Source: Candidatus Kaiserbacteria bacterium
Lineage (GTDB): Bacteria; Patescibacteriota; Minisyncoccia; Phycocordibacterales; Phycocordibacteraceae
Assembly (NCBI GenBank): GCA_016217905.1
Contig: JACRFL010000013.1
Location: forward strand, 3,184-67,183
DNA: 64,000 nucleotides
Direction: 5' to 3'
In this document: one piece after another, positions 19,917 to 60,608 of the stretch
Numbering within the stretch: the first letter of the stretch is position 1
Layout of the letters: each line of letters opens with the position of its first letter
The notes under the pieces: generated by a model
Databases searched by the model: none
What the model was told of the DNA's origin: nothing
What the model saw: only the letters and a program-made list of their open reading frames with translations
Made by a program: the position numbers and the translations under genes

Positions 19917-20669
19917 ATGACTCGCGACGAGAAGTGGCTCTTGGAGGAAAAATATCATGGAAACGCGACAGTCGCATATGCGGCGGATGCGAAGCGGCTC
20001 GCCTCCGGCGAGCCGCTCGGCTATGTGATCGGCTGGCAGCCGTTTCTCGGCCTCAACATCTATCTCGATTCGCACCCTCTCATCCCCCGCCCCGAGACGG
20101 AGTGGTGGACGGAGCAACTTCTAACCAACTTGGAAGCGAAGCTTCCAATTGGAAGCTTCGCTTCCAAGTTTAAGTTCCTCGACCTGTGCGCCGGATCCGG
20201 TGCCATCGGCTGTGCCGCGCTCGCGAGACTGCCGGACGCCCGGGTATATTTCGGCGAGATCGATCCGGCGCATACCGCGACCATTGTGAAAAACATTCGA
20301 GAAAATAATCTCGACGAACCACGCGCGGACATCCTCACCGGTGATCTCTTCGGACCGTTCGCCGGTTTGCGCTTCGACGTCATCGCGGCGAACCCGCCCT
20401 ACGTTTCCGCAGGCCGCGCGCTCCCCTCAAGCGTCGCGGGCTACGAGCCGGCTACGGCCCTCTTCGCCGGAGAGGATGGCCTCGATATCATCCGCCGCAT
20501 CGCGAAAGAGCTTTCGAAATATCTTAAAGAGAGCGGTACCGCGTGGATCGAGTGCGACAGCGCGCACGCGGCAGCCGCGTGCGCGCTCTTCGCGGAGCAG
20601 GGATTCGACGCACAGATACGCACCGACCAATACGGCGACTCGCGCGTTCTCGTAGTATCATTCCCCTGA
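19917..20669 (+). CDS. prmC: Release-factor glutamine N5-methyltransferase PrmC/HemK; contains an in-frame 44-nt palindromic insertion
   Basis: Motifs LDLCAGSGAIG (SAM-binding) and NPPY. A TATACT -10 box sits 13 nt upstream of the ATG at 19917. The segment TNLEAKLPIGSFASK between the conserved ETE..L and LDLxxGSG blocks is encoded by the palindrome at 20127-20170. Confidence 0.8.
   Translation: MTRDEKWLLEEKYHGNATVAYAADAKRLASGEPLGYVIGWQPFLGLNIYLDSHPLIPRPETEWWTEQLLTNLEAKLPIGSFASKFKFLDLCAGSGAIGCAALARLPDARVYFGEIDPAHTATIVKNIRENNLDEPRADILTGDLFGPFAGLRFDVIAANPPYVSAGRALPSSVAGYEPATALFAGEDGLDIIRRIAKELSKYLKESGTAWIECDSAHAAAACALFAEQGFDAQIRTDQYGDSRVLVVSFP
20127..20170. repeat. Palindromic element copy B, a perfect 44-nt palindrome (AACTTGGAAGCGAAGCTTCCAATTGGAAGCTTCGCTTCCAAGTT), in-frame inside prmC
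   Basis: Verified perfect reverse-complement symmetry. It shares its termini (C)CAACTTGGA...TCCAAGTT with elements A, C and D. It contains nested AAGCTT palindromes. Confidence 0.7.
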
Positions 20670-21498: not shown

Positions 21499-22734
21499 AT
21501 GGCTGAGCCGCTCTCAACCGACCCGTACAAGGGTGTCCGCGACTTCTACCCCGCCGAGTGGGAGAGGGTGGGCGCGATGTTCAGCGCAATTCGGGATACG
21601 CTTCGCGCCTGGGGATACGAAGAATACAACGCCTCCCCGCTTGAGCGCACCGAACTCTACGAGGCGAAGACGTCAGAAGAGATAGTGAACGAGCAGACCT
21701 ACACCTTCACCGACCGCGGCGGTCGAAGCGTGACGCTCCGCCCCGAGATGACTCCCACGCTTGCGCGCATGGTCGCCGCCAAACGCCGCGAACTCACCTT
21801 TCCGCTGCGTTGGTTTTCCATCGGCAACCGCTTCCGCTACGAGCGTCCGCAGAAAGGCCGCCTCCGCGAGTTCTACCAGGCGGACATCGACCTCGTCGGT
21901 CTTCCCGAGGGCGAGGCGGACATCGAAATCGTACAACTCGCCTCGGCGATACTCACTGCGTTTGGCGCTACAGAACGCGATTTTATTATTCGAGTTAACT
22001 CTCGCTCACTTCTAAACGCCGCGTGCGAAGCGGCTGGACTTACCGGCGACGCAGTCAGACAGTATCTGCGTCTTCTCGATAAGAGATCGAAAATGACTCC
22101 TGAGGCCTTCCGAGCTGCTTCAACCGCGATTACCGCAACCGATCCGCTCACGCTCATCGATTCAAAAAAAATGGATGCCTTTATCTTTACGCTCAAAGAG
22201 CGCGGCATCGGCAATATCGTCTTCGACGCCGGCATCACGCGCGGTTTTGACTATTACACCGGCATGATTTTTGAGGTATTCGATACGAATCCGACGAACC
22301 CGCGCTCGCTCTTCGGCGGCGGACGCTATGACGGCCTGGTCGCACTCTGGGGCGACGACGCCGTCCCGGCGGTCGGCTTCGCGCTCGGGGATGTTACGCT
22401 CGCCGACTTTCTTGAGACGCATTCGCTCCTACCGAAGTCAGACTTCGGTAGGCCGCAGGTGTATCTTGGCACGCCGACCGCCGGCGACATCCCCGCTGCA
22501 CAAGCATTCGCTGATACGCTGCGCAAAGAGGGCTTCCGCGTTTTCGTCAATCTCTCCGACCGCTCGCTCGGCGACCAAATAAAAGATGCCGTGAAGCGCG
22601 GCGTCCCGCTCTTCCTCGCGTATGGTGTCGACGAGGTTGCTCGCCAAACGGTCCGCATGAAGATACTCCGTACCGGCGAAGAAGCTGAACTCCCGGCGTC
22701 CGAGCTCCCCGCGCGGCTGCGCGCTGGGAGCTAG
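21499..22734 (+). CDS. hisS: Histidyl-tRNA synthetase
   Basis: Class II aaRS motifs FRYERPQKGRLREFYQ (motif 2) and LFGGGRYDGLV (motif 3), with a C-terminal anticodon-binding domain. Confidence 0.9.
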   Translation: MAEPLSTDPYKGVRDFYPAEWERVGAMFSAIRDTLRAWGYEEYNASPLERTELYEAKTSEEIVNEQTYTFTDRGGRSVTLRPEMTPTLARMVAAKRRELTFPLRWFSIGNRFRYERPQKGRLREFYQADIDLVGLPEGEADIEIVQLASAILTAFGATERDFIIRVNSRSLLNAACEAAGLTGDAVRQYLRLLDKRSKMTPEAFRAASTAITATDPLTLIDSKKMDAFIFTLKERGIGNIVFDAGITRGFDYYTGMIFEVFDTNPTNPRSLFGGGRYDGLVALWGDDAVPAVGFALGDVTLADFLETHSLLPKSDFGRPQVYLGTPTAGDIPAAQAFADTLRKEGFRVFVNLSDRSLGDQIKDAVKRGVPLFLAYGVDEVARQTVRMKILRTGEEAELPASELPARLRAGS

Positions 22735-36498: not shown

Positions 36499-38448
36499 AT
36501 GGCAGCGGAAACACTCTACGAGGGCCCGATAACGATGACCCGGAAAGGCATCGGCTTTTTCTCGGTTGGCGCCGATACGGAGGACCTGATTATCCCGCCG
36601 GAGTGGACCCATCACGCGCTTCACGGCGACATCGTGAAGGTCGCTCCGGCCGGCAGCTATCGCGACCCGAGGGGGATGATGCCGCCGAGAGAGGCCGGCA
36701 AGGTCGCCGAGATCGTCTCGCGCGCGCGCGAGACATTCGTCGGCACGCTAATCGAGGAAAACGACCTCACGATGATGGCGCCGGACTACAAGAAGATGCA
36801 TGTGCCGATTGTCATTAAGGACAGAGGCGATGCGCCGCTCGGCTATAAAGTCCTCGTGCGGCTCGCAAGCTGGGAGGCTGACAAAGAATATCCGCTCGGT
36901 ACTATCGAAGAAGTTATCGGCAAGGCTGGCGCGCATGAGACCGAGATGCGTGCACTCGCGCTTGGGCAGGGATTCTCGCCCGCCTTCCCTCCCGGTGTTG
37001 TCGCCGATGCGAAACATCTCGAGGAGCACGGACGCGCGCTGCTCGCCGAAGAGGCGAAAAATTCAAAGCGTCGCGACTTCAGAAACGTCAGCACCTGTAC
37101 CATCGACCCCTTCGACGCAAAAGACTTCGACGATGCGCTCTCCGTGCGGAAACTTCCTGACGGGAACATCGAAGTCGGCGTCCATATCGCCGATGTCTCT
37201 TTCTTCGTGAAGCCCGGTACCGCGCTCGACAAGGAGGCGGTGGAGCGCGCGACAAGCGTATACCTCGTCGACCGCACGATCCCGATGCTCCCCGAGATTC
37301 TCTCGACCAACCTCTGCTCGCTGAATCCGAACCAGGACCGCCTCGCCGTCTCTGCGGTCTTTACGCTCGATGAAGAGGCGAATATCAAGGATACCTGGTT
37401 CGGCGAGACGGTCATCCACTCCGACAAACGCTTTACGTATGAAAACGCTCAAGAGGTGCTCGACCGAGGCGAGGGCGATTTACACGCAGAGCTCTCGACA
37501 CTTCTCGAACTTTCCAAGAAGATCCGCGCGCGGCGCGCGGCGAAGGGCGCTATTGAATTTGATACCGCCGAGGTCAAGGTCGAGCTCGATGAGGCAGGTA
37601 AGCCGATCGCTATCCGTCTCAAAGAGCGCAAGGCGACGAACCTCCTCATCGAGGACTTTATGCTGCTCGCTAACGAAGCAGTGGCGAAGCATCTCTCTGC
37701 GCTCACGAAGAATGGCGGGCCGCACTTCTACTCGCTCTACCGTATTCACGATGTGCCGGACACCGACCGTATCGAAAATCTCGCGAACCTGCTTCGCTCC
37801 ATGGGCTACCACTTGAAAACGTCCGGCGGCGGCCAAGTCACCGGTGCCGAATTAAACAAACTTCTCGAATCGGTAAAGGGGAAGCCGGAAGAATATCTTG
37901 TAAAAACCGCGGCGCTGCGCTCGATGAGCAAGGCCGTCTACGCGACCCGCAACATCGGCCACTTCGGCCTCGCGTTCGACTACTACACGCACTTCACCTC
38001 CCCCATACGCCGCTACCCCGATCTCGTTGCCCATCGACTTATCAAGGCGCATGCAGGCGGCGCCCCGATAACGTCGGAAGAGATGCGGGAGTTTGATAAA
38101 CTCGCATTCCACGCCTCCGAGCGCGAGGTGGCCGCCGCCGACGCCGAGCGCGACTCGATCAAGATGAAGCAGGTGGAGTTTCTCGCCGAGCGCATCGGCG
38201 AAGAATTCGATGCCGTTATCTCTGGCGTCACCGATCGCGGCCTCTACGTCGAAGAACAGGCGACTCATGCCGACGGCATGGTCCGCATCAAAGACGTCGG
38301 CGACGATTATTTCGAATACGAAGAGAAGCAATATCGACTTGTCGGCCGCCGCACGAAGAAGGCGTACCGCCTCGGCGACCCCATCCGCGTGCGCCTCTCC
38401 GCCGCGCGCATCGCGGAAAAAGAACTGGACTTCGTTCCGGTCGTCTAA
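36499..38448 (+). CDS. rnr: Ribonuclease R / exoribonuclease II family (RNB domain)
   Basis: Cold-shock-like N-terminal domain, RNB catalytic motifs (TIDPFDAKDFDDALSV and others) and a C-terminal S1 domain. Confidence 0.9.
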   Translation: MAAETLYEGPITMTRKGIGFFSVGADTEDLIIPPEWTHHALHGDIVKVAPAGSYRDPRGMMPPREAGKVAEIVSRARETFVGTLIEENDLTMMAPDYKKMHVPIVIKDRGDAPLGYKVLVRLASWEADKEYPLGTIEEVIGKAGAHETEMRALALGQGFSPAFPPGVVADAKHLEEHGRALLAEEAKNSKRRDFRNVSTCTIDPFDAKDFDDALSVRKLPDGNIEVGVHIADVSFFVKPGTALDKEAVERATSVYLVDRTIPMLPEILSTNLCSLNPNQDRLAVSAVFTLDEEANIKDTWFGETVIHSDKRFTYENAQEVLDRGEGDLHAELSTLLELSKKIRARRAAKGAIEFDTAEVKVELDEAGKPIAIRLKERKATNLLIEDFMLLANEAVAKHLSALTKNGGPHFYSLYRIHDVPDTDRIENLANLLRSMGYHLKTSGGGQVTGAELNKLLESVKGKPEEYLVKTAALRSMSKAVYATRNIGHFGLAFDYYTHFTSPIRRYPDLVAHRLIKAHAGGAPITSEEMREFDKLAFHASEREVAAADAERDSIKMKQVEFLAERIGEEFDAVISGVTDRGLYVEEQATHADGMVRIKDVGDDYFEYEEKQYRLVGRRTKKAYRLGDPIRVRLSAARIAEKELDFVPVV

Positions 38449-38452
38449 AACA

Positions 38453-38475
38453 ACTTGGAGGCCGGGCCTCCAAGT
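38453..38475. repeat. Palindromic element copy C (ACTTGGAGGCC-G-GGCCTCCAAGT), a bidirectional terminator between convergent rnr and smc
   Basis: Perfect 11-bp inverted repeat. It lies exactly between the rnr stop (38446-38448) and the smc stop (38478-38480). Confidence 0.65.
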
Positions 38476-38477
38476 GC

Positions 38478-40688
38478 TTATTTTGCGACGGAGACCGCTT
38501 CGTCGAACTTCACCGAGAGGAGCTTGGAAACGCCGTCGCCGCCCATGGTAACGCCGTAGAGAACGCTCGTGCGGCTCATGGTTTCGCGATTGTGGGTGAT
38601 GACGATGAGTTGCGACTTCTGCGCGAGGTTCTCGATCATGTCGCCGTAGCGGCGGCTGTTCGCCTCGTCCAAGGCGGCATCGGTTTCATCGAGTATAAGA
38701 AATGGCGGCGGGTTCACCTGGCTCATCGCGAAGATGAGCGCGATCGAAGTGAGCGCGCGCTCGCCGCCCGAGAGCTGCATCAAGGAGCGCACCTTTTTCT
38801 TCGGCAGATTGACGGCTATTTCTATGCCGGGACGCTCTTCTTTCTCTGGTTCGTCGCTCGATTCTTCTTCACCATCTTCTAACTCTTCGGGTTCTTCCGG
38901 CTCTTCGAGCGTGAGCCGCGCGCCGCCGCCGCCGAACATAAGCGCGAAGTATTCGCCGAACGATGCGTTCACCTTGGTGAGCCCTTCGGAGAAATGCTTC
39001 GCGAGCTCTGTGTCAAGGTCGTGGATGAGCGAACCGAGACCTGCAGAGGACTTCGCAAGATCCTCAAGCTCGGTCGCAAGAAACGCTTCTCGCTCCGACA
39101 CCTCCTTGTGCTCCTGCCGGATCTCTTCGCCGGTACCACCCGCCTCCTCGAGGCGAATCTTGGTGCGCTCAAGGACGCGCTTACGATCTTCTTGCACTTT
39201 GCGCTCCCCATCGGGCAGTTGTGCAAGAGGCGCATACGAGATGGTCGCCGTGCCAGCGATGGCGAGCGCTTCTCCTTTGTCACGTTCAAGCGACTCGGCG
39301 AGGAGCGTGAGTTCGAACTCGCGCGCCTCGGCCTTGGCTATCTCGCCCTCCTCGCGCGCCTTCGTTTGTGCAAGGTCGAGGATGCGTCGCCTCACTTCGC
39401 GGCCGGTCTCTTCAAGCGCAAGCATCGCTTCGCGGGAGCGCGCACGCGCCGACTCGGCATTCTCGAGCGCCGCCGAGGCGGCCGCATATTTCTCGGCGAG
39501 CGCGCTTCGCTCCTGCTCAAGCTTCAGAGCGGCATTTTCCTCCTCGGAGAAATAGTCGTCTCGGGGCGCGCCGTGCCGGGAGAAGAAGAATCTGACCGCC
39601 GCAGCGATCGCGTCAAGCGCGGCGCGTAACGCCTCGACGCTCCCACCGGCGACGGTCTGAGCCTGCTTCTCGACCTCGTCGCGCAACGCTTCGAGCTCTT
39701 CGCGCGGCACCTTCGCGTACGGCTCACGTGCGACCGCAGAGGCGCGCCGCTTCACCTCCGCGAGCGCGCCCTCGACGCGGCCGATATCGCGCGAGAGCGA
39801 GGCGCGCGCACTCGAGTTCTCGACGACCTCCCGTTCCGCCCTCCGCAGCGCTTCGGCGCGCTGAACCGTCTCATGGTCTGCCGACTTTGGGTCTGCGACC
39901 CGATCGAGCTCGACGCTCACTACCGCAAGGCGTTCGGTCGCGTTTCGCTTCTCTCCAGCAACTTTTATTTTCTCTTGCGCAAGATAGGCGTCCTCGATTG
40001 CAAAGTACGTCTGCGCGAGTCCGACGAGCTCGACGCGGAGCGTATCGGCGCGCTCAAGCTTCTTCACCTGTCCTTCGAGGAATCGCAGATGCGGCGCGAG
40101 CTCGCGCCGCAACGAGTTGACCTGCGCAATATTCTCTTCGGTCTTTTCAAGTTTTTTCTCCGCCTCGCGTTTTTTAAATTCGTAAATCTTTAGTCCAAGC
40201 GCGTCCTCAAGTATCGCGCGGCGGTCGCGGGGAGAGGCGAGCAGTATCCTATCCGCCTCGCCCTGGGAAATGATGTGGTGCCCCGTCTCGCCGATGTTCG
40301 CGCCGGCCAAGAGCTCCTCTATGTCGCGCAGCCGCACGCGCGAGCCGTTAATGGAGTACTCGCTCGCTCCGTCGCGCAGCACGGCGCGCTCGATCGAGAC
40401 TTCGTCGAAGTCGATCTTGAACGTACGCCGGGAATTATCGAATACGATCGTCACAGCCGCGCGATTTGCCCTTGGGACTGTATGGGAACCGCCCCAGATG
40501 AGGTCCTCCGCACGCTTGCCGCGCATGCTCTTCATCGACTGCTCGCCGAGCGCGAAGCGGAACGCCTCGGCGACATTCGATTTGCCTGAGCCGTTCGGGC
40601 CGACGATCGCGGTCGTAGAATTGGAAAAATCCAAAACCGTCTTCTTGGCGAACGACTTAAACCCGACGATCTCCAATCGCTTCAGCAT
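38478..40688 (-). CDS. smc: SMC-family chromosome-partitioning ATPase, unusually short (736 aa)
   Basis: N-terminal Walker A GPNGSGKSN with DLIWGG; C-terminal signature LSGGERALTSIALIFA and Walker B ILDETDAALD. The coiled-coil arms are shortened and no obvious hinge was seen. Confidence 0.75.
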   Translation of the reverse strand: MLKRLEIVGFKSFAKKTVLDFSNSTTAIVGPNGSGKSNVAEAFRFALGEQSMKSMRGKRAEDLIWGGSHTVPRANRAAVTIVFDNSRRTFKIDFDEVSIERAVLRDGASEYSINGSRVRLRDIEELLAGANIGETGHHIISQGEADRILLASPRDRRAILEDALGLKIYEFKKREAEKKLEKTEENIAQVNSLRRELAPHLRFLEGQVKKLERADTLRVELVGLAQTYFAIEDAYLAQEKIKVAGEKRNATERLAVVSVELDRVADPKSADHETVQRAEALRRAEREVVENSSARASLSRDIGRVEGALAEVKRRASAVAREPYAKVPREELEALRDEVEKQAQTVAGGSVEALRAALDAIAAAVRFFFSRHGAPRDDYFSEEENAALKLEQERSALAEKYAAASAALENAESARARSREAMLALEETGREVRRRILDLAQTKAREEGEIAKAEAREFELTLLAESLERDKGEALAIAGTATISYAPLAQLPDGERKVQEDRKRVLERTKIRLEEAGGTGEEIRQEHKEVSEREAFLATELEDLAKSSAGLGSLIHDLDTELAKHFSEGLTKVNASFGEYFALMFGGGGARLTLEEPEEPEELEDGEEESSDEPEKEERPGIEIAVNLPKKKVRSLMQLSGGERALTSIALIFAMSQVNPPPFLILDETDAALDEANSRRYGDMIENLAQKSQLIVITHNRETMSRTSVLYGVTMGGDGVSKLLSVKFDEAVSVAK

Positions 40689-40728: not shown

Positions 40729-41418
40729 TTACCAACCCATCTTCTCGAGTGCGTTCTGAGCGGAAGATTGTTCGGCTTCTTGCTTAGAGTTCCCTTCTCC
40801 GCGGGCGATTTCGGAGGAGCCAATGAAGACGCCGACGGTGAAGCGCTTGTCGTGATCGGGCCCGACTTCAGAGAGAGTCTCGTAGGCAGGCGTGATGCCC
40901 CGCTTCTCCTGTGCGCTTTCCTGGAACCTGCTCTTCGCGTCTTGGTAGGAGCGCTTGGCGATAACCTCGTCGATTTTAATGTACACATTCCGCGCGATGA
41001 ATTGTTCGGCCGGCGCGTAGCCCTGATCCAAATAGATTGCGCCGATGACTGCTTCGAACGCATCCGCGAGGATCACATCGCGCGCGCGGCCGGTATCTTT
41101 CGCCTCACCCTTCGAGAGCAGCAAAAAATCATTGATGCCGAGCGCCTGCGCGCGCTCGGCCAAGGAGACGGTGTTTACGAGCGCGGCGCGATACGCCGTG
41201 AGCTCCCCTTCGGGCTTCTCGGGGAATTTTTTAAAAAGAAAATCAGTAGTGGCGAGCTCAAGCACCGCATCACCGAGAAACTCGAGCCGCTCGTTGTGAG
41301 ACCCCGTGTATTCGCGGTGCTCGTTGAGGTAGGAGCGGTGCGTCAGGGCCTCGATAAGAAGGTCGAGGCTGTTGAAGGAGAGACCGAGTCGTGCTGCGAA
41401 AACGTTGAAATCAGGCAT
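40729..41418 (-). CDS. rnc: Ribonuclease III
   Basis: RNase III signature ERLEFLGDAVLE and a C-terminal dsRBD. Start taken at MPDFNV. Confidence 0.85.
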   Translation of the reverse strand: MPDFNVFAARLGLSFNSLDLLIEALTHRSYLNEHREYTGSHNERLEFLGDAVLELATTDFLFKKFPEKPEGELTAYRAALVNTVSLAERAQALGINDFLLLSKGEAKDTGRARDVILADAFEAVIGAIYLDQGYAPAEQFIARNVYIKIDEVIAKRSYQDAKSRFQESAQEKRGITPAYETLSEVGPDHDKRFTVGVFIGSSEIARGEGNSKQEAEQSSAQNALEKMGW

Positions 41419-42328
41419 GAAGTTGCGTCTCACGTGCGGCGCCGGCGTGGTCGAGGAGTTTCTGGACGGCGACAGTGACGATGGGGAGCATATCATCGTA
41501 GAAATTGAGATCAATGATGTCCTGGAGCCGGAACCATTTCGCGTCGTCGAGCCCGCCGCTCTTCTTCAGCTGAAGCGGCTCGAAGTTGCTCGACGCGAGG
41601 AAGAACCAGACGTGCTTCCTGACCTTCCCTTTCTCCGGGTGCGAAGCGACGTATTCGTTCTCGCCGACCTGTGCGCCCACGGAAGCGGTGAGACCGAGTT
41701 CTTCCTTGATGACGCGCGCGACGCCCGTCTGCGGCGTCGCGTCCTCTTCGATGTGGCCCTTCGAGAGCGTCCAGTGGCCGAAGACGTCGTGCACGAGCGC
41801 GAGGTAATACTGTCCCTCGTGCTTGGCATACACGATGGCGCCGCCCATTTTCTCAAGCGGCAATTCTTCGCGCTTTACTTTCTTTCCTCCGTGCTCGTTC
41901 TTGCCGGGTTCGCCGAGCTCCTTGTAGACCGCGCCGAGGACTCCGTTAACGAACCGGCCGCTCGAGTCGCCGCCGAAGGTCTTCGCGAGCTCGATGGCTT
42001 CGTTGATAGCGACTTTTGCGGGTACCTGTGTGCGATCGGCGAAGAGGAGTTCGTGGAGCCCGAGGCGGAGGATGTTGCGGTCAATGGGTGCGATGCGCTC
42101 CAAAGGCCACTCGGGAGCGGCTTTTTCGATGACGAGATCGATGTCGCTTTTCTTGGTGAGGACGCCCGAGAGAAGGCCATTCATGAACGATTGGTCGACA
42201 TCGCCGCTGCCGAACTCCTCGACATTGCGCGCGAGGATCGCGAACGTGTCCTTCTCGGACGCATGCATGGTGTCCCACTCAAAGAGTGTTTGAAGGACAA
42301 TGGAACGCGCGAGGTGTCGATTCGCCAT
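41411..42328 (-). CDS. nusB: NusB antitermination factor fused to a C-terminal Nudix hydrolase domain
   Basis: The N-terminal about 140 aa match NusB closely (VPAKVAINEAIELAKTFGGDSSGRFVNGVL). The C-terminal about 160 aa carry a Nudix box GHIEEDATPQTGVARVIKEELGL. Start taken at MANRHLARS. Confidence 0.7.
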   Translation of the reverse strand: MANRHLARSIVLQTLFEWDTMHASEKDTFAILARNVEEFGSGDVDQSFMNGLLSGVLTKKSDIDLVIEKAAPEWPLERIAPIDRNILRLGLHELLFADRTQVPAKVAINEAIELAKTFGGDSSGRFVNGVLGAVYKELGEPGKNEHGGKKVKREELPLEKMGGAIVYAKHEGQYYLALVHDVFGHWTLSKGHIEEDATPQTGVARVIKEELGLTASVGAQVGENEYVASHPEKGKVRKHVWFFLASSNFEPLQLKKSGGLDDAKWFRLQDIIDLNFYDDMLPIVTVAVQKLLDHAGAARETQLHA

Positions 42329-42378: not shown

Positions 42379-42407
42379 CCAACTTGGAGGTCCGGCCTCC
42401 AAGTTGG
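42379..42407. repeat. Palindromic element copy D (CCAACTTGGAGG-tccgg-CCTCCAAGTTGG) between rpmF and nusB-Nudix
   Basis: 12-bp perfect arms with a 5-nt centre. It sits in the 45-nt gap after the rpmF stop. Confidence 0.65.
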
Positions 42408-43165: not shown

Positions 43166-43765
43166 TTATTCCCGAATGGAATCAAGATGCAGGAAGGAAC
43201 GGCGGTGGATAACGCAGGGGCCGTATTTTTCAAGTGCTTCGTAATGCGCGCGGGTACCGTAGCCCTTGTGCTTCTCAAAACCGTAGAGCGGGTACTCTGC
43301 CGACAGCCGGACCATGAGCCGGTCGCGGCTGACCTTCGCCGCAATAGAGGCGAGTGAGATAAGCGGAACGAGCTCGTCGCCGCCCACGATAGTTTCTTGC
43401 GCATATTCAGGCGGCGCCTTGAGTGCCCCGTCCAGCAGAATACGGAAGTCAGACTTCCGTACTTCTCCTACGAGAACACGTACGCCGCGGAAGAGCGCGC
43501 GACGCACGGCTGTTACGATTCCTTCCCTGTCGATTATTCCGGCGCTCTCGAACTCGACCGTAAAGCGCGCGTCGCCCAGGGCGACGCGCGCTTCGAGCAT
43601 CCGGTAAATCGCCTCCCTTTTCTTTTCTGAAAGTTTTTTCGAGTCCCTGACGCCCGGGAACTCGCCCGCCACATCGAACCCTTCCGGCATCGCGACCACG
43701 CCGACCGCCAAGGGTCCCGCCAAGGGTCCCCGCCCCGCTTCATCCACCCCGAGCAAGAATCGCAT
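43166..43765 (-). CDS. rnhB: Ribonuclease HII
   Basis: N-terminal GVDEAGRGPLAGP catalytic motif and the conserved DSK and HxxSxxS-like regions. Confidence 0.85.
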   Translation of the reverse strand: MRFLLGVDEAGRGPLAGPLAVGVVAMPEGFDVAGEFPGVRDSKKLSEKKREAIYRMLEARVALGDARFTVEFESAGIIDREGIVTAVRRALFRGVRVLVGEVRKSDFRILLDGALKAPPEYAQETIVGGDELVPLISLASIAAKVSRDRLMVRLSAEYPLYGFEKHKGYGTRAHYEALEKYGPCVIHRRSFLHLDSIRE

Positions 43766-52298: not shown

Positions 52299-52344
52299 GA
52301 GAGCCACGCGATTTCCGGCGTTAGCCGGAAATCGCGTGGCTCTC
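52299..52344. terminator. Perfect 21-bp-stem hairpin (GAGAGCCACGCGATTTCCGGC-gtta-GCCGGAAATCGCGTGGCTCTC) overlapping the sortase stop codon
   Basis: Verified perfect inverted repeat. The right arm encodes the last 7 codons of the sortase; the loop contains the TAA stop. Probable terminator or attenuator between the sortase gene and the downstream gene. Confidence 0.55.
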
Positions 52345-60568: not shown

Positions 60569-60608
60569 TGCCCCAGAGCCCGCGCGTACTCGCGCGGGCT
60601 CTGGGGCA
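60569..60608. terminator. Bidirectional terminator hairpin (17-18 bp perfect stem GCCCCAGAGCCCGCGCG-tact-CGCGCGGGCTCTGGGGC)
   Basis: Verified perfect inverted repeat between convergent genes 59823..60491 (+) and 60612..62324 (-). Confidence 0.6.

Follow-up and report, generated by a model that had tools for sequence, protein, structure and literature searches.

The window, a 64-kb stretch of DNA from a Candidatus Kaiserbacteria genome, includes prmC (hemK), an open reading frame whose product is identical to the GenBank entry 'peptide chain release factor N(5)-glutamine methyltransferase [Candidatus Kaiserbacteria bacterium]'. Within this coding sequence lies AACTTGGAAGCGAAGCTTCCAATTGGAAGCTTCGCTTCCAAGTT, a run of 44 nt that is its own reverse complement over its full length: a repeat search resolved it into two arms of 22 nt (20127–20148 and 20149–20170), 100% complementary and with a spacer of 0 nt, and the symmetry ends at the flanking bases C (20126) and T (20171). 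The perfect palindrome reported in a first-pass annotation of the sequence, together with the HindIII palindromes described as nested within it, was thereby confirmed, the AAGCTT sites being located at 20139 and 20153 and CCAATTGG centrally at 20145. The 44-mer, situated in the 250-aa open reading frame, is translated in frame as residues N71–K84 of PrmC (NLEAKLPIGSFASK) and is free of stop codons in all six frames; the earlier suggestion of a mobile-element-like insertion read as part of the protein was likewise supported.

The arithmetical expectation for a perfect palindrome with 22-bp arms is 64000 x 4^-22, or ~4e-9 per window. The DNA strand of the palindrome folds at −24.1 kcal/mol (z = −10.9) into a helix of ~20 bp, and a 121-nt stretch of the prmC mRNA, for which a stable hairpin had been foreseen, folds at −60.4 kcal/mol (z = −6.3), with 0 of 200 shuffles as low in either case. 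Since the expectation is so small and no shuffle matched these folding energies, a chance origin of the palindrome is excluded. The flanks of the 44-mer (CTAACC and TAAGTT) hold no target-site duplication.

Table 1. Coordinates of prmC, the palindrome within it and the related repeats of the window.
Feature	Coordinates	Strand	Basis or context
prmC/hemK coding sequence, 250 aa (host gene)	19917..20669	+	open reading frame, protein identity, alignment, AlphaFold model
44-nt perfect palindrome, interpreted as a REP doublet (compact REPIN-like)	20127..20170		self-complementarity, repeat search, folding
REP unit 1, TTGGAAGC-GAA-GCTTCCAA, 8-bp stem, 3-nt loop	20130..20148		encodes LEAKLP, favoured 'LEAxxP' frame
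REP unit 2, TTGGAAGC-TTC-GCTTCCAA, reverse complement of unit 1	20149..20167		encodes GSFASK, favoured 'LGxxASK' frame
REP singlet, AACTTGGAGGCC-C-GGCCTCCAAGT	10586..10609		in frame within FAD-linked oxidase gene
REP singlet, AACTTGGAGGCC-G-GGCCTCCAAGT	38452..38475		fills 29-nt gap between convergent genes
REP singlet, CCAACTTGGAGGTC-C-GGCCTCCAAGTTGG, one T.G pair	42379..42407		between rpmF (L32) and nusB-NUDIX gene

The internal structure of the palindrome is that of a doublet: two 19-nt hairpins in inverted orientation, which share 4 nt when counted as 23-nt units. Within a doublet, both units have the same sequence. The same architecture was recorded at other loci (L002 and L326–L329), while L001 and L124 carry doublets with a 7–8 nt spacer, and the commonest form of pair in the family is a compact doublet of 42 nt (10 cases). 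With units of 19–27 nt, stems of 8–11 bp and loops of 1–3 nt, these elements have the form of REPs, which are short stem-loop palindromes of 20–40 nt. Like a REPIN, the 44-mer consists of two inverted REPs that fold into one long hairpin (here a 20-bp helix), but the spacer that lies between the REPs of a REPIN is lacking, the units overlapping by 4 nt in doublets of 42–44 nt in total.

Four family sites were located in the window, namely the prmC doublet and three singlets, and the earlier view that the 44-mer and the short elements at 10586, 38452 and 42379 are members of one repeat family was supported. The further claim that its outer bases are identical to theirs held only as a near-match, with 10 of 11 positions shared (AACTTGGAaGC vs AACTTGGAgGC), and the prmC doublet belongs to a subtype with the inner stem AAGC, that of the three singlets being AGGCC. 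In alignments made by tblastn, the singlet at 10586 is an exact insertion of 27 nt (9 codons) relative to most FAD oxidase orthologues, which lack the 9-aa segment SNLEARPPS that it encodes, and is thus a clean parallel to the prmC case in the same window; both copies are intragenic, in contrast to the extragenic location by which REPs are usually defined. The singlet at 38452 is bordered by genes for an RNB-domain RNase (ending at 38448) and an SMC_N/AAA_23 protein (ending at 38478), and the two genes on either side of that at 42379 both lie on the - strand.

Beyond the window, the stem ACTTGGA(A/G)GC...GC(C/T)TCCAAGT defines a family of hairpins (ACTTGGNNNN..NNNNCCAAGT; in the hairpin form of the unit, ACTTGGAAGC-GAA-GCTTCCAAGT) that is widespread in Patescibacteria. 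At least 157 copies were recorded in at least 120 metagenome stretches with contig GC contents of 31–60%, the sample being biased towards intact copies by the use of a pattern that admits perfect matches only; the arithmetical chance rate of the stem pattern is ~1 per 2.7e11 positions. Among the metagenome matches listed, up to 5 copies occur in 3 kb, and the irregular spacing of the copies rules out a CRISPR array. Viral contigs searched with the loose pattern ACTTGGARGN{3,25}CYTCCAAGT yielded only generic, unrelated stem-loops at approximately the chance rate, and the GTAG/CGTC tag was absent from the flanks of the ACTTGG units in the metagenome copies, which are variable (cc/ca/a ... gg/tg/t).

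Of the 157 copies, 68 (~43%, among the matches listed) are within frames that run for 200 codons or more without a stop, and the genes that host in-frame copies include those for TopA, ArgRS, LeuRS, LigA, GatB and a PBP. Frame usage is strongly restricted: 65 of the 68 coding copies are read as LEAxxPS or LGxxASK and the remaining three as TWKxSFQV, and the prmC doublet uses precisely the two favoured frames. A spliced or bypassed insert was ruled out on these grounds, all inserts being frame-keeping and stop-free with the biased frame use of translated sequence. An operator site was also ruled out, given that complementary bases on either side lengthen the copies and that these are located inside genes. 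An intrinsic terminator is a GC-rich hairpin with a T run behind it at the end of a gene, whereas the 44-mer lies in mid-gene and is followed by TAAGTTCC; the bidirectional terminators typical of these genomes have another form (e.g. AAAACAAG..GCCCGCGC..CTTGTTTT). No Rfam match at the gathering score was obtained for the window or for six loci, and at a permissive E-value only chance matches to generic (miRNA-like) hairpins were returned, for the type-b and type-c inserts in two related loci.

Among the matches listed, an open reading frame of ~220 aa is flanked within ~40 nt by family hairpins at 17 loci, including one in a Kaiserbacteria MAG (L324), and carries copies of the hairpin inside its own coding sequence as two in-frame REPs at fixed positions. 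At the Kaiserbacteria locus (MAG GCA_009694825.1), the RAYT gene is preceded by AACCACTTGGAAGCGAAGCTTCCAAGTGGTT, an exact match to the core of the prmC units. The flanking of a RAYT gene by the same hairpins, a feature of REP systems, was therefore found in relatives and not within the 64-kb window, where no RAYT gene was detected. When compared with Pfam, the protein scored 29–32 bits against Y1_Tnp (cut-off 23), and its best NCBIfam match was 'REP-associated tyrosine transposase' at 23–28 bits, under the cut-off of 80. The best fold match in the PDB was 4er8, the E. coli RAYT bound to a REP hairpin (E = 4e-3), a match that is weak because the transposase model is of low confidence (pLDDT 54); PDB sequence searches with the single sequence and with a profile gave no match. 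Its 4910 homologues are named 'transposase [Patescibacteria]' or 'RayT' (the latter by JGI). In an alignment read by eye, H91 and H93 of an HxH (HUH) motif are invariant in the context NPNHFHF, and conservation is high in the GTGYTxYFN region with the candidate catalytic tyrosine, where G114, F119 and N120 are invariant and G112 and T116 nearly so. The associated enzyme is thus a Y1 HUH transposase of the IS200/RAYT type and not a DDE enzyme. A RAYT at locus L127 goes with a different hairpin, ATACAAGGT..ACCTTGTAT. From the association of hairpin and transposase we infer that the movement of this family is RAYT-driven.

The site occupied in PrmC follows the helix ETEWWTEQLL and precedes strand beta1 and SAM motif I (FLDLCAGSG). 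In the AlphaFold model (pLDDT 89), residues 71–85 form the end of a helix (59–75) and the loop preceding a strand (86–89), and are the least confident block of the model; the T. maritima HemK alignment shows a gap opposite the insert. Between the PRPETE and GSG motifs the linker ranges from 28 to 93 residues among orthologues, a short form (32 aa or less) being present in only 13 of 119. Those prmC-site inserts that were checked as DNA all fold into very stable hairpins, are frame-keeping and stop-free, and belong to several hairpin families, some containing GTAG (e.g. ATGTAGGAC); between orthologues the hairpins vary in sequence, length (15–190 nt) and family, and some orthologues have none. 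The pattern used to define the prmC site left out loci L146, L172, L179, L184 and L202, three of which stop at contig ends. As the first-pass annotation would have it for an inserted element, the 15-aa segment was not encountered in distant PrmC proteins encoded by non-palindromic DNA: distant orthologues have a non-palindromic linker and lack the segment, and relatives with a similar peptide (NLEA..ASKL) retain palindromic DNA. The insertion site is accordingly a tolerant, hypervariable surface linker.

Nine of the PrmC orthologues carry 42-nt doublets of equal length at the same codon, with sequence differences that are mirrored between the arms, a pattern that could reflect maintenance in place, by selection or arm-to-arm conversion, rather than repeated insertion. 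On the PrmC tree the insert classes do not cluster, a result to be read as lack of clustering only, since the class labels are crude (the '27-nt monomer' pattern matched nothing) and the tree is poorly resolved. Two further conserved perfect palindromes that are not insertions occur in prmC, one at +75 (KRLAxGEPL) and one at +640 (SAHAAAACA). Both show mirrored substitutions between orthologues, and together they comprise 714 Watson-Crick pairs, 3 A.C pairs, 0 G.U pairs and 8 other mismatches; another palindrome-maintaining force therefore exists in these genomes.

Taken together, the 44-mer is probably a doublet of RAYT-linked REP hairpins, compact and REPIN-like, carried as a tolerated selfish passenger in the PrmC linker. 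The cognate enzyme of the family would be the RAYT-like Y1 HUH tyrosine transposase, which, by analogy with the E. coli RAYT and IS200/IS605, may recognise the folded hairpin on single-stranded DNA and cut and join beside it. The doublet would have landed, or been renewed, in the linker that joins strand beta1 to the first helix of the methyltransferase domain, and would survive there because the unit is stop-free in six frames, because its net length (45 nt over the empty site) keeps the reading frame, and because the two frames used give small, benign peptides (LEAKLP and GSFASK). With no stops and the frame kept, the ribosome would therefore read through and PrmC would gain ~15 residues, predicted to form a helix extension and loop distant from the SAM and NPPY motifs. 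The linker itself may be a recurrent landing pad at which hairpin elements are gained, replaced and nested.

The pairing within these elements bears directly on a different and unlikely explanation, namely that the hairpin has been kept for a role in the prmC mRNA, either as a site at which RNase III acts in processing or decay or as a translational pause, its REP origin being secondary (exaptation). Ribosome stalling and RNase III cleavage had both been raised in the first-pass annotation. A candidate pause would fall between the N-terminal region and the methyltransferase domain. Against it, Watson-Crick pairing is perfect on both strands: G.U pairs number 0 of ~180 pairs in doublets and 0 beside the 714 pairs of the two other palindromes, and the imperfect coding copies include five with A.C and none with G.U on the sense strand. 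The very stable ~20-bp helix, an RNase III homologue encoded in the window near 41292 (- strand), the scarcity of short linkers, the stability of every insert checked as DNA and the nine mirrored doublets of equal length are all compatible with a function in mRNA. Also against it, neither the sequence, the length nor the family of the hairpin is conserved between orthologues, some of which manage without one; the same hairpins occur in unrelated genes and in intergenic DNA; the identity of the two units of a doublet is not something that an RNA function would demand; and no Rfam match was found for the window or the six loci.

Mirrored changes between orthologous doublets, and the mirrored substitutions in the two non-insertion palindromes, speak for the idea that the palindrome arose and stays perfect locally, by template switching or hairpin-templated repair without a transposase, the likeness between copies reflecting a shared mutational bias; inverted duplication and quasipalindrome correction are the processes proposed. 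As a full account of the 44-mer this is nevertheless slightly more doubtful still than a role in mRNA: an identical 10-bp stem recurs in at least 157 copies at unrelated sites in genomes of 31–60% GC, the stem flanks a dedicated Y1 transposase, and insert class does not follow the PrmC tree, within the limits of poor resolution and crude classes. Since local conversion may act after insertion, it is a complement to the REP-doublet explanation rather than a true alternative.

The first-pass annotation had named, as an example, a full-length versus deleted MITE-like element. In its classical sense a MITE derives by deletion from a DDE-type IS and has terminal inverted repeats; the 44-mer would be the full-length and the 24-mers the deleted form. 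The common outer bases and the small, palindromic character of the 44-mer speak for this, but it is very improbable. A MITE has inverted repeats bounding a non-palindromic interior, whereas the whole of the 44-mer is stem and loop; it consists of two complete units of a sister subtype and not of a single unit with added interior, its flanks show no target-site duplication, units of 23–27 nt are far under MITE size, and the associated protein is a Y1 HUH enzyme. An assembly artefact is the least credible of all, since although some assemblers or amplification chimeras yield perfect spacer-less palindromes by a chimeric inverted join, the 44-mer is in frame and internal to a contig of 76.6 kb, and assemblies made independently (JGI, ENA, Logan, NCBI) have equivalent palindromes at this codon.

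Returning to the REP doublet as a tolerated passenger, a more general extension of that explanation can be offered tentatively, as a possibility that we hold with some doubt: patescibacterial REPs may be 'coding-compatible' selfish hairpins that colonise the loops of essential proteins, turn over at landing pads and have their arms maintained at the DNA level. Singlets of 27 nt and doublets of 42 nt, both multiples of three and stop-free in all six frames, would have been filtered to two benign frames and would occupy the loops of essential proteins, and of the transposase that moves them, in genomes where intergenic space is almost absent. Turnover would be rapid at fixed pads, the PrmC linker and the FAD-oxidase turn among them, perhaps through targeting of existing hairpins by the transposase or by nested elements (types b, c and d), and perfect complementarity of the arms would be kept up by a process acting on the DNA. 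If this were true, much of the variation in protein length in the Patescibacteria radiation would stem from such hairpins.

In more immediate terms, the odd 15-residue segment of PrmC is explained as a tolerated repeat insertion, in preference to readings as a regulatory motif, as an intein-like element or as a sequencing error; gene callers and aligners should treat it as an insert. More generally, Patescibacteria (CPR) seem from this evidence to have an abundant REP-RAYT system, the hairpins of which reside largely within essential genes of very compact genomes. In-frame REP insertion as an event is already known; neither a link between REP-RAYT and Patescibacteria nor this repeat family there was described in the REP/RAYT and Patescibacteria literature searched. 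The PrmC linker and the FAD-oxidase turn, re-used across many species, offer natural test sites for target choice by RAYTs, the persistence time of REPs and the active maintenance of perfect palindromy.

Several known systems invite comparison. In IS200/IS605 elements (IS608/ISDra2), a Y1 HUH enzyme recognises sub-terminal DNA hairpins on single strands and produces no target duplication, and the ends are imperfect hairpins, of different sequence on left and right, that bound the transposase gene. The present family resembles them in the associated Y1 HUH enzyme and the lack of target duplication, and differs in that a single symmetric hairpin appears to be spread alone through the genome. The RPE-1 elements of Rickettsia are palindromic inserts of ~100–150 bp, and no transposase is known for the originals; here, by contrast, the units are of 23–27 nt with an identifiable RAYT, and the bacterial lineage differs. 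As summarised in a later paper, Rickettsia palindromic elements are selfish palindromes that, in a reduced genome, have entered housekeeping genes in frame and add surface segments to the translated proteins (Ogata et al. 2000, cited in PMC3733652), and selfish palindromic DNA in frame in a housekeeping gene is likewise what prmC appears to carry; RPE-4 and RPE-6 are short CGTC-tagged intragenic REPs (PMC3733652).

The closest counterparts are the REP/REPIN-RAYT systems known in E. coli and Pseudomonas (Bertels & Rainey PMC3337134, PMC3116915; Messing et al. PMC3479197), with which the patescibacterial family shares short palindromic hairpins, here with many copies dispersed over metagenome stretches, inverted doublets that form a single longer hairpin on folding, a gene for a Y1 HUH transposase with its own hairpins on its flanks, and a hairpin sequence that differs with transposase lineage (as at L127). 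It departs from them in its host, a Patescibacterium; in units that form perfect palindromes and lack a GTAG or CGTC tag; in a spacer-less doublet of 42–44 nt, where REPINs of Pseudomonas are ~70–110 nt with a spacer between the REPs (~89 nt in P. fluorescens SBW25); in the ~43% of copies, among the matches listed, that are intragenic and in frame; and in a protein of ~220 aa with two in-frame REPs at fixed positions, known RAYTs being ~165 aa. Intragenic GTAG/CGTC REPs lying wholly within the open reading frames of known proteins have been described, more than half of them as dimers or groups that add 20–30 residues and were read as tolerated insertions (Di Nocera et al. 2013, PMC3733652). 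The prmC doublet, entirely within the open reading frame of a known protein, is of the same kind, but its family is of another sequence, its intragenic fraction is much larger, its frame bias has been quantified, and many species show repeated occupation of a single codon position.

The perfect 44-nt palindrome that the first-pass annotation had placed within prmC was borne out in full, since the sequence (AACTTGGAAGCGAAGCTTCCAATTGGAAGCTTCGCTTCCAAGTT) equals its own reverse complement, with 22-nt arms that are 100% complementary and no spacer, and no longer inverted repeat was detected anywhere in the window. AAGCTT occurs within it at 20139 and 20153, the central motif being CCAATTGG. It is read in frame (translation NLEAKLPIGSFASK) within a plus-strand ORF (19917–20669), the 250-aa product of which is identical to the GenBank peptide chain release factor N(5)-glutamine methyltransferase of Candidatus Kaiserbacteria bacterium; stops are absent from its three forward frames, and therefore from all six. 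The calculated folding energy was −24.1 kcal/mol (z = −10.9) for the DNA and −60.4 kcal/mol (z = −6.3) for the surrounding 121 nt of mRNA. Built of two 19-nt hairpins, each the reverse complement of the other, and adding 45 nt relative to the empty site, the element is an in-frame REP doublet of a hairpin family associated with REP-associated tyrosine transposases (RAYTs), and as such is of a kind already known.

Scanning of a metagenome collection with ACTTGGARGCNNNGCYTCCAAGT, for which our own arithmetic gives a chance expectation of one per ~2.7 × 10^11 positions, returned at least 120 stretches, those listed carrying at least 157 copies (up to five per 3 kb) on contigs of 31–60% GC. Among the matches listed, the 10-bp stem was constant and the 3-nt loop variable; complementary bases on either side often extended a copy, and pairs of copies abutting in inverted orientation were frequent. 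A recurring ORF of ~220 aa had the hairpin within ~40 nt on one or both sides, and its product scored better than the curated cut-off of Pfam Y1_Tnp (IS200-like transposase), the best NCBIfam match, below the model cut-off, being the RAYT. The protein carries an HUH motif (HFH in NPNHFHF) and a conserved region, GTGYTxYFN, around the candidate catalytic tyrosine; a poor structural model (pLDDT 54) gave as its best solved-structure match 4er8, the complex of the E. coli RAYT with a REP hairpin, and next the TnpA structures of IS608 and ISDra2. Names among the 4910 database homologues include 'transposase [Patescibacteria group bacterium]', '[Candidatus Kaiserbacteria bacterium]', '[Candidatus Yonathbacteria]' and, from JGI, 'REP element-mobilizing transposase RayT'. 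In one Kaiserbacteria MAG (locus L324), AACCACTTGGAAGCGAAGCTTCCAAGTGGTT, identical to the core of the prmC units in the window, stands 14 nt before the ATG of the RAYT-like gene, which has two in-frame copies within and a variant copy after it. In further Kaiserbacteria-like loci a related transposase is accompanied by a cognate hairpin of another sequence, and in L127 ATACAAGGT-GGA-ACCTTGTAT occurs three times around and inside the transposase gene, ~700 nt upstream of prmC.

In two Kaiserbacteria-like genomes, that of L127 and that of L124, the RAYT-like gene was recorded within ~1 kb upstream of prmC, which could be coincidence or a reason for local hopping into prmC. In an alignment of 25 RAYT-like homologues (A2; P0121 and others), nearly every gene had two in-frame REPs (QLGxxASKL) at two shared positions, one after IGSIYENSF and the other after YVNLNDRVH, both in low-confidence regions of the model (gene examples, L228:146-838 and L324:2193-2861); such copies might be autoregulatory or simply represent self-colonisation.

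Palindromic elements and associated genes in the window and in related loci (L-numbers, DNA loci from relatives or metagenomes)
Feature	Location	Sequence	Remarks
prmC palindrome	20127–20170	AAC + (TTGGAAGC-GAA-GCTTCCAA) + (TTGGAAGC-TTC-GCTTCCAA) + GTT	
Short elements	10586, 38452, 42379	(C)AACTTGGAGGCC-N-GGCCTCCAAGT(T)	from first-pass annotation
prmC inserts, 27-nt perfect hairpins		e.g. AATGTAGGACGTC-G-GACGTCCTACATT and CATGTGGGGTTTC-GGA-AACCCCACATG	
prmC inserts, ACTTGG doublets			window type
prmC inserts, longer structured elements		conserved cores (types b, c, d)	nested in variable outer stems
RAYT-like gene	L324:2193-2861		Ca. Kaiserbacteria MAG GCA_009694825.1
RAYT-like genes near prmC	L127:8924-9346 (− strand); L124:14-112		
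prmC non-insert palindrome	19993–20017	AGCGGCTCGCC-TCC-GGCGAGCCGCT	KRLASGEP, overlaps conserved GEP motif
prmC non-insert palindrome	20559–20587	AGCGCGCACGCGGC-A-GCCGCGTGCGCGCT	SAHAAAACA
RNase III homologue	~40729–41514 (− strand)	signature HNERLEFLGDAVLE	
Perfect hairpin in hisS	22428–22452	CCTACCGAAGTC-A-GACTTCGGTAGG	ends CTAC/GTAG
Other perfect hairpins of window	43563–43593, 52299–52344, 60569–60608		one with 15-bp arms inside − strand ORF
FAD-linked oxidase insertion point	L147:7839+, L162:2836+, L155:12-44, L255:11046	ACTTGG-type or ATGTAGGAC-type	
Type b	prmC site: L132, L138, L153, L155, L162; further copies: L151 (reverse orientation), L130:14686, L197:16286, L155:6179	core GACTTGGCCTAGCGGCCCGGAGCGC	
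Type c	prmC site: L127, L129, L134, L137, L139, L141, L145, L152, L156; elsewhere: L142:14277-14477, L146:4364-4564 and 15101-15301		~75 nt
Type d	L130, L131, L144	GGTCTGGCCGACCGAAGGGAGGAGA	third nested element
Hairpins in 580–605-aa ORF	L141:19327-19353; L152:9280-9329; L153:13615-13662	L141: CATGTGGGGTTTCGTAAACCCCACATG	
Earlier prmC palindrome, ~+45	L187:10043-10069, L195:6325-6349, L193:10047-10071	GGCATGGAAAGC-GAA-GCTTTCCATGCC	GMESEAFHA

Coding copies were defined as those in a stop-free frame of at least 200 codons that continues for 60 nt or more to either side, and 68 of the 157 sampled copies among the matches listed were of this type; within the sample, coding copies are the rule and not the exception. 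Of ten host ORFs, chosen among the longest and compared with Pfam, nine proved to encode ordinary proteins in which the hairpin falls within a domain or between two, these including topoisomerase I, ArgRS, LeuRS, NAD-dependent DNA ligase, GatB and a PBP transpeptidase. The 68 copies were read as LGxxASK (35), LEAxxPS (30) or TWKxSFQV (3); as all frames are open, this skew cannot be detection bias, and it is as expected under selection on the encoded peptide. The units of the prmC doublet are read in precisely those two preferred frames, as LEAKLP and GSFASK. A singlet together with the flanks it commonly has (CAACTTGG..CCAAGTTG) occupies 27 nt, or nine codons, and a compact doublet 42 nt.

The insertion site in prmC is itself variable. 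Among the best 120 PrmC homologues (59–72% identical to the query, 225–348 aa), an alignment of 43 located nearly all internal length variation at one place, from EWWTEQLL to FLDLCAGSG, where the linker stretch measures 28–93 aa in the Kaiserbacteria-like clade, the short form occurs in only 13 of 119 close homologues, and more distant orthologues have a non-palindromic stretch of 31–35 aa (e.g. HLKERFGDTPF). Orthologous DNA was fetched for 3 + 80 + 4 loci, and every insert checked kept the frame, lacked stops and folded into a very stable hairpin. Nine loci carried an ACTTGG doublet of equal length at the same codon, with inner stems that vary (AAGC, AAGT, AGGCC, CGGT, GGAGT and others) and halves that mirror almost perfectly: excluding L003 (two units in direct orientation) and L001 and L124 (each with a spacer), mismatches were confined to the central pair plus one C·A pair, with no G·T pairs. 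Such equal-length doublets with mirrored changes fit in-place maintenance. The doublet signature was visible at the protein level in 15 of the 120 homologues (NLEA..ASKL, NLAV..TAKL, DLEV..TSKL and similar). Nearest-neighbour agreement of insert class on a poorly resolved neighbour-joining PrmC tree was 32/119 versus 29 with shuffled labels, which suggests frequent replacement at the linker.

Alignment to T. maritima HemK (1nv8, 1sg9) positioned the extra residues between the post-PRPETE helix and the SAM-motif strand, and the AlphaFold model of PrmC (mean pLDDT 89) comprised a helix (59–75), loop (76–85) and strand (86–89), with its lowest-confidence block at 71–80. On this basis the insert reads as a predicted helix extension plus loop before motif I, far in sequence from NPPY (159–162); from that modelled placement and the very wide range of lengths that the site accepts, we infer that it is harmless to PrmC.

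The first-pass annotation had also matched the ends of the 44-mer to three short elements elsewhere in the window; the outer match held (10 of 11 bases), whereas the inner stem proved to be different. With one mismatch allowed, the 11-mer occurs five times in the window against 1.07 expected, a number reached in none of 100 shuffles. One short element fills the space separating two convergent genes, those of an RNB-domain RNase and of an SMC_N/AAA_23 protein, another lies between rpmF and a nusB-NUDIX gene, and that at 10586–10609, contrary to first appearance, lies within a FAD-linked oxidase gene as an exact nine-codon insertion (SNLEARPPS) where most orthologues read EVG-DGYA. This turn is a re-used insertion point of its own, at which the type of hairpin varies by genome and most orthologues have none. 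Two long hairpins of the window (21-bp and 18-bp arms) stand at gene ends and are terminator-like in look.

In several genomes types b and c also directly follow the stop codon of another gene, in every case nested in differing outer stems, which hints that some elements target pre-existing hairpins. For type b that gene ends in YSYDAVKALVDQAL. In type c, a hairpin whose GACG loop is conserved and whose stem covaries is followed by GAG and then by the hairpin (A)TTTTC-AGCA-GAAAA(T); nested in variable long outer stems, the element was oriented like the host or upstream gene in 13 of 13 copies, and it had no match in Rfam. An ORF ~8 kb from prmC holds hairpins identical or similar to those of the prmC site, that in L141 differing by one loop base from the prmC hairpin of L143 and L197, and the doublets in L152 and L153 having an 8-nt spacer. 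The REP-like palindrome found earlier in prmC in lower-GC distant orthologues resembles the ACTTGGAAGC family.

By analogy with the E. coli RAYT and IS200/IS605 elements, the Y1 enzyme would recognise the folded hairpin on single-stranded DNA and could mobilise singlets or doublets. Two further perfect palindromes conserved in prmC, at +75 (KRLAxGEPL) and +640 (SAHAAAACA), are not insertions, and in many orthologues each persists through mirrored (compensatory) substitutions, their pairs comprising 714 Watson–Crick, three A·C, eight other mismatches and no G·U; because of this pattern, a DNA-level force keeping the arms complementary may exist. Selection on an mRNA helix would offer another explanation for retention of the hairpin, and an RNase III gene is present in the window, so that the organism could in principle cleave 20-bp helices such as that of prmC; however, the lack of G·U pairs in the prmC palindromes argues against it, as do the imperfect coding copies, which showed five A·C versus no G·U on the sense strand, although these numbers are small.

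The reading of the 44-mer as an in-frame REP doublet belongs to a wider pattern worth study of its own, namely a Patescibacteria-wide, coding-compatible REP family, landing pads that are repeatedly re-used, a transposase gene that itself contains REPs, and puzzling palindromes conserved in coding sequence. No report linking REPs or RAYTs with Patescibacteria was found among the papers searched. In other bacteria, intragenic REPs, over half of which occur as dimers or groups, were described earlier and read as insertions that the host genes tolerate (Di Nocera et al., PMC3733652), and the RPEs of Rickettsia are likewise earlier-reported intragenic palindromes. The ACTTGG hairpins and the transposase that they flank show the defining features of REP/REPIN–RAYT systems as set out by Bertels & Rainey (PMC3337134).
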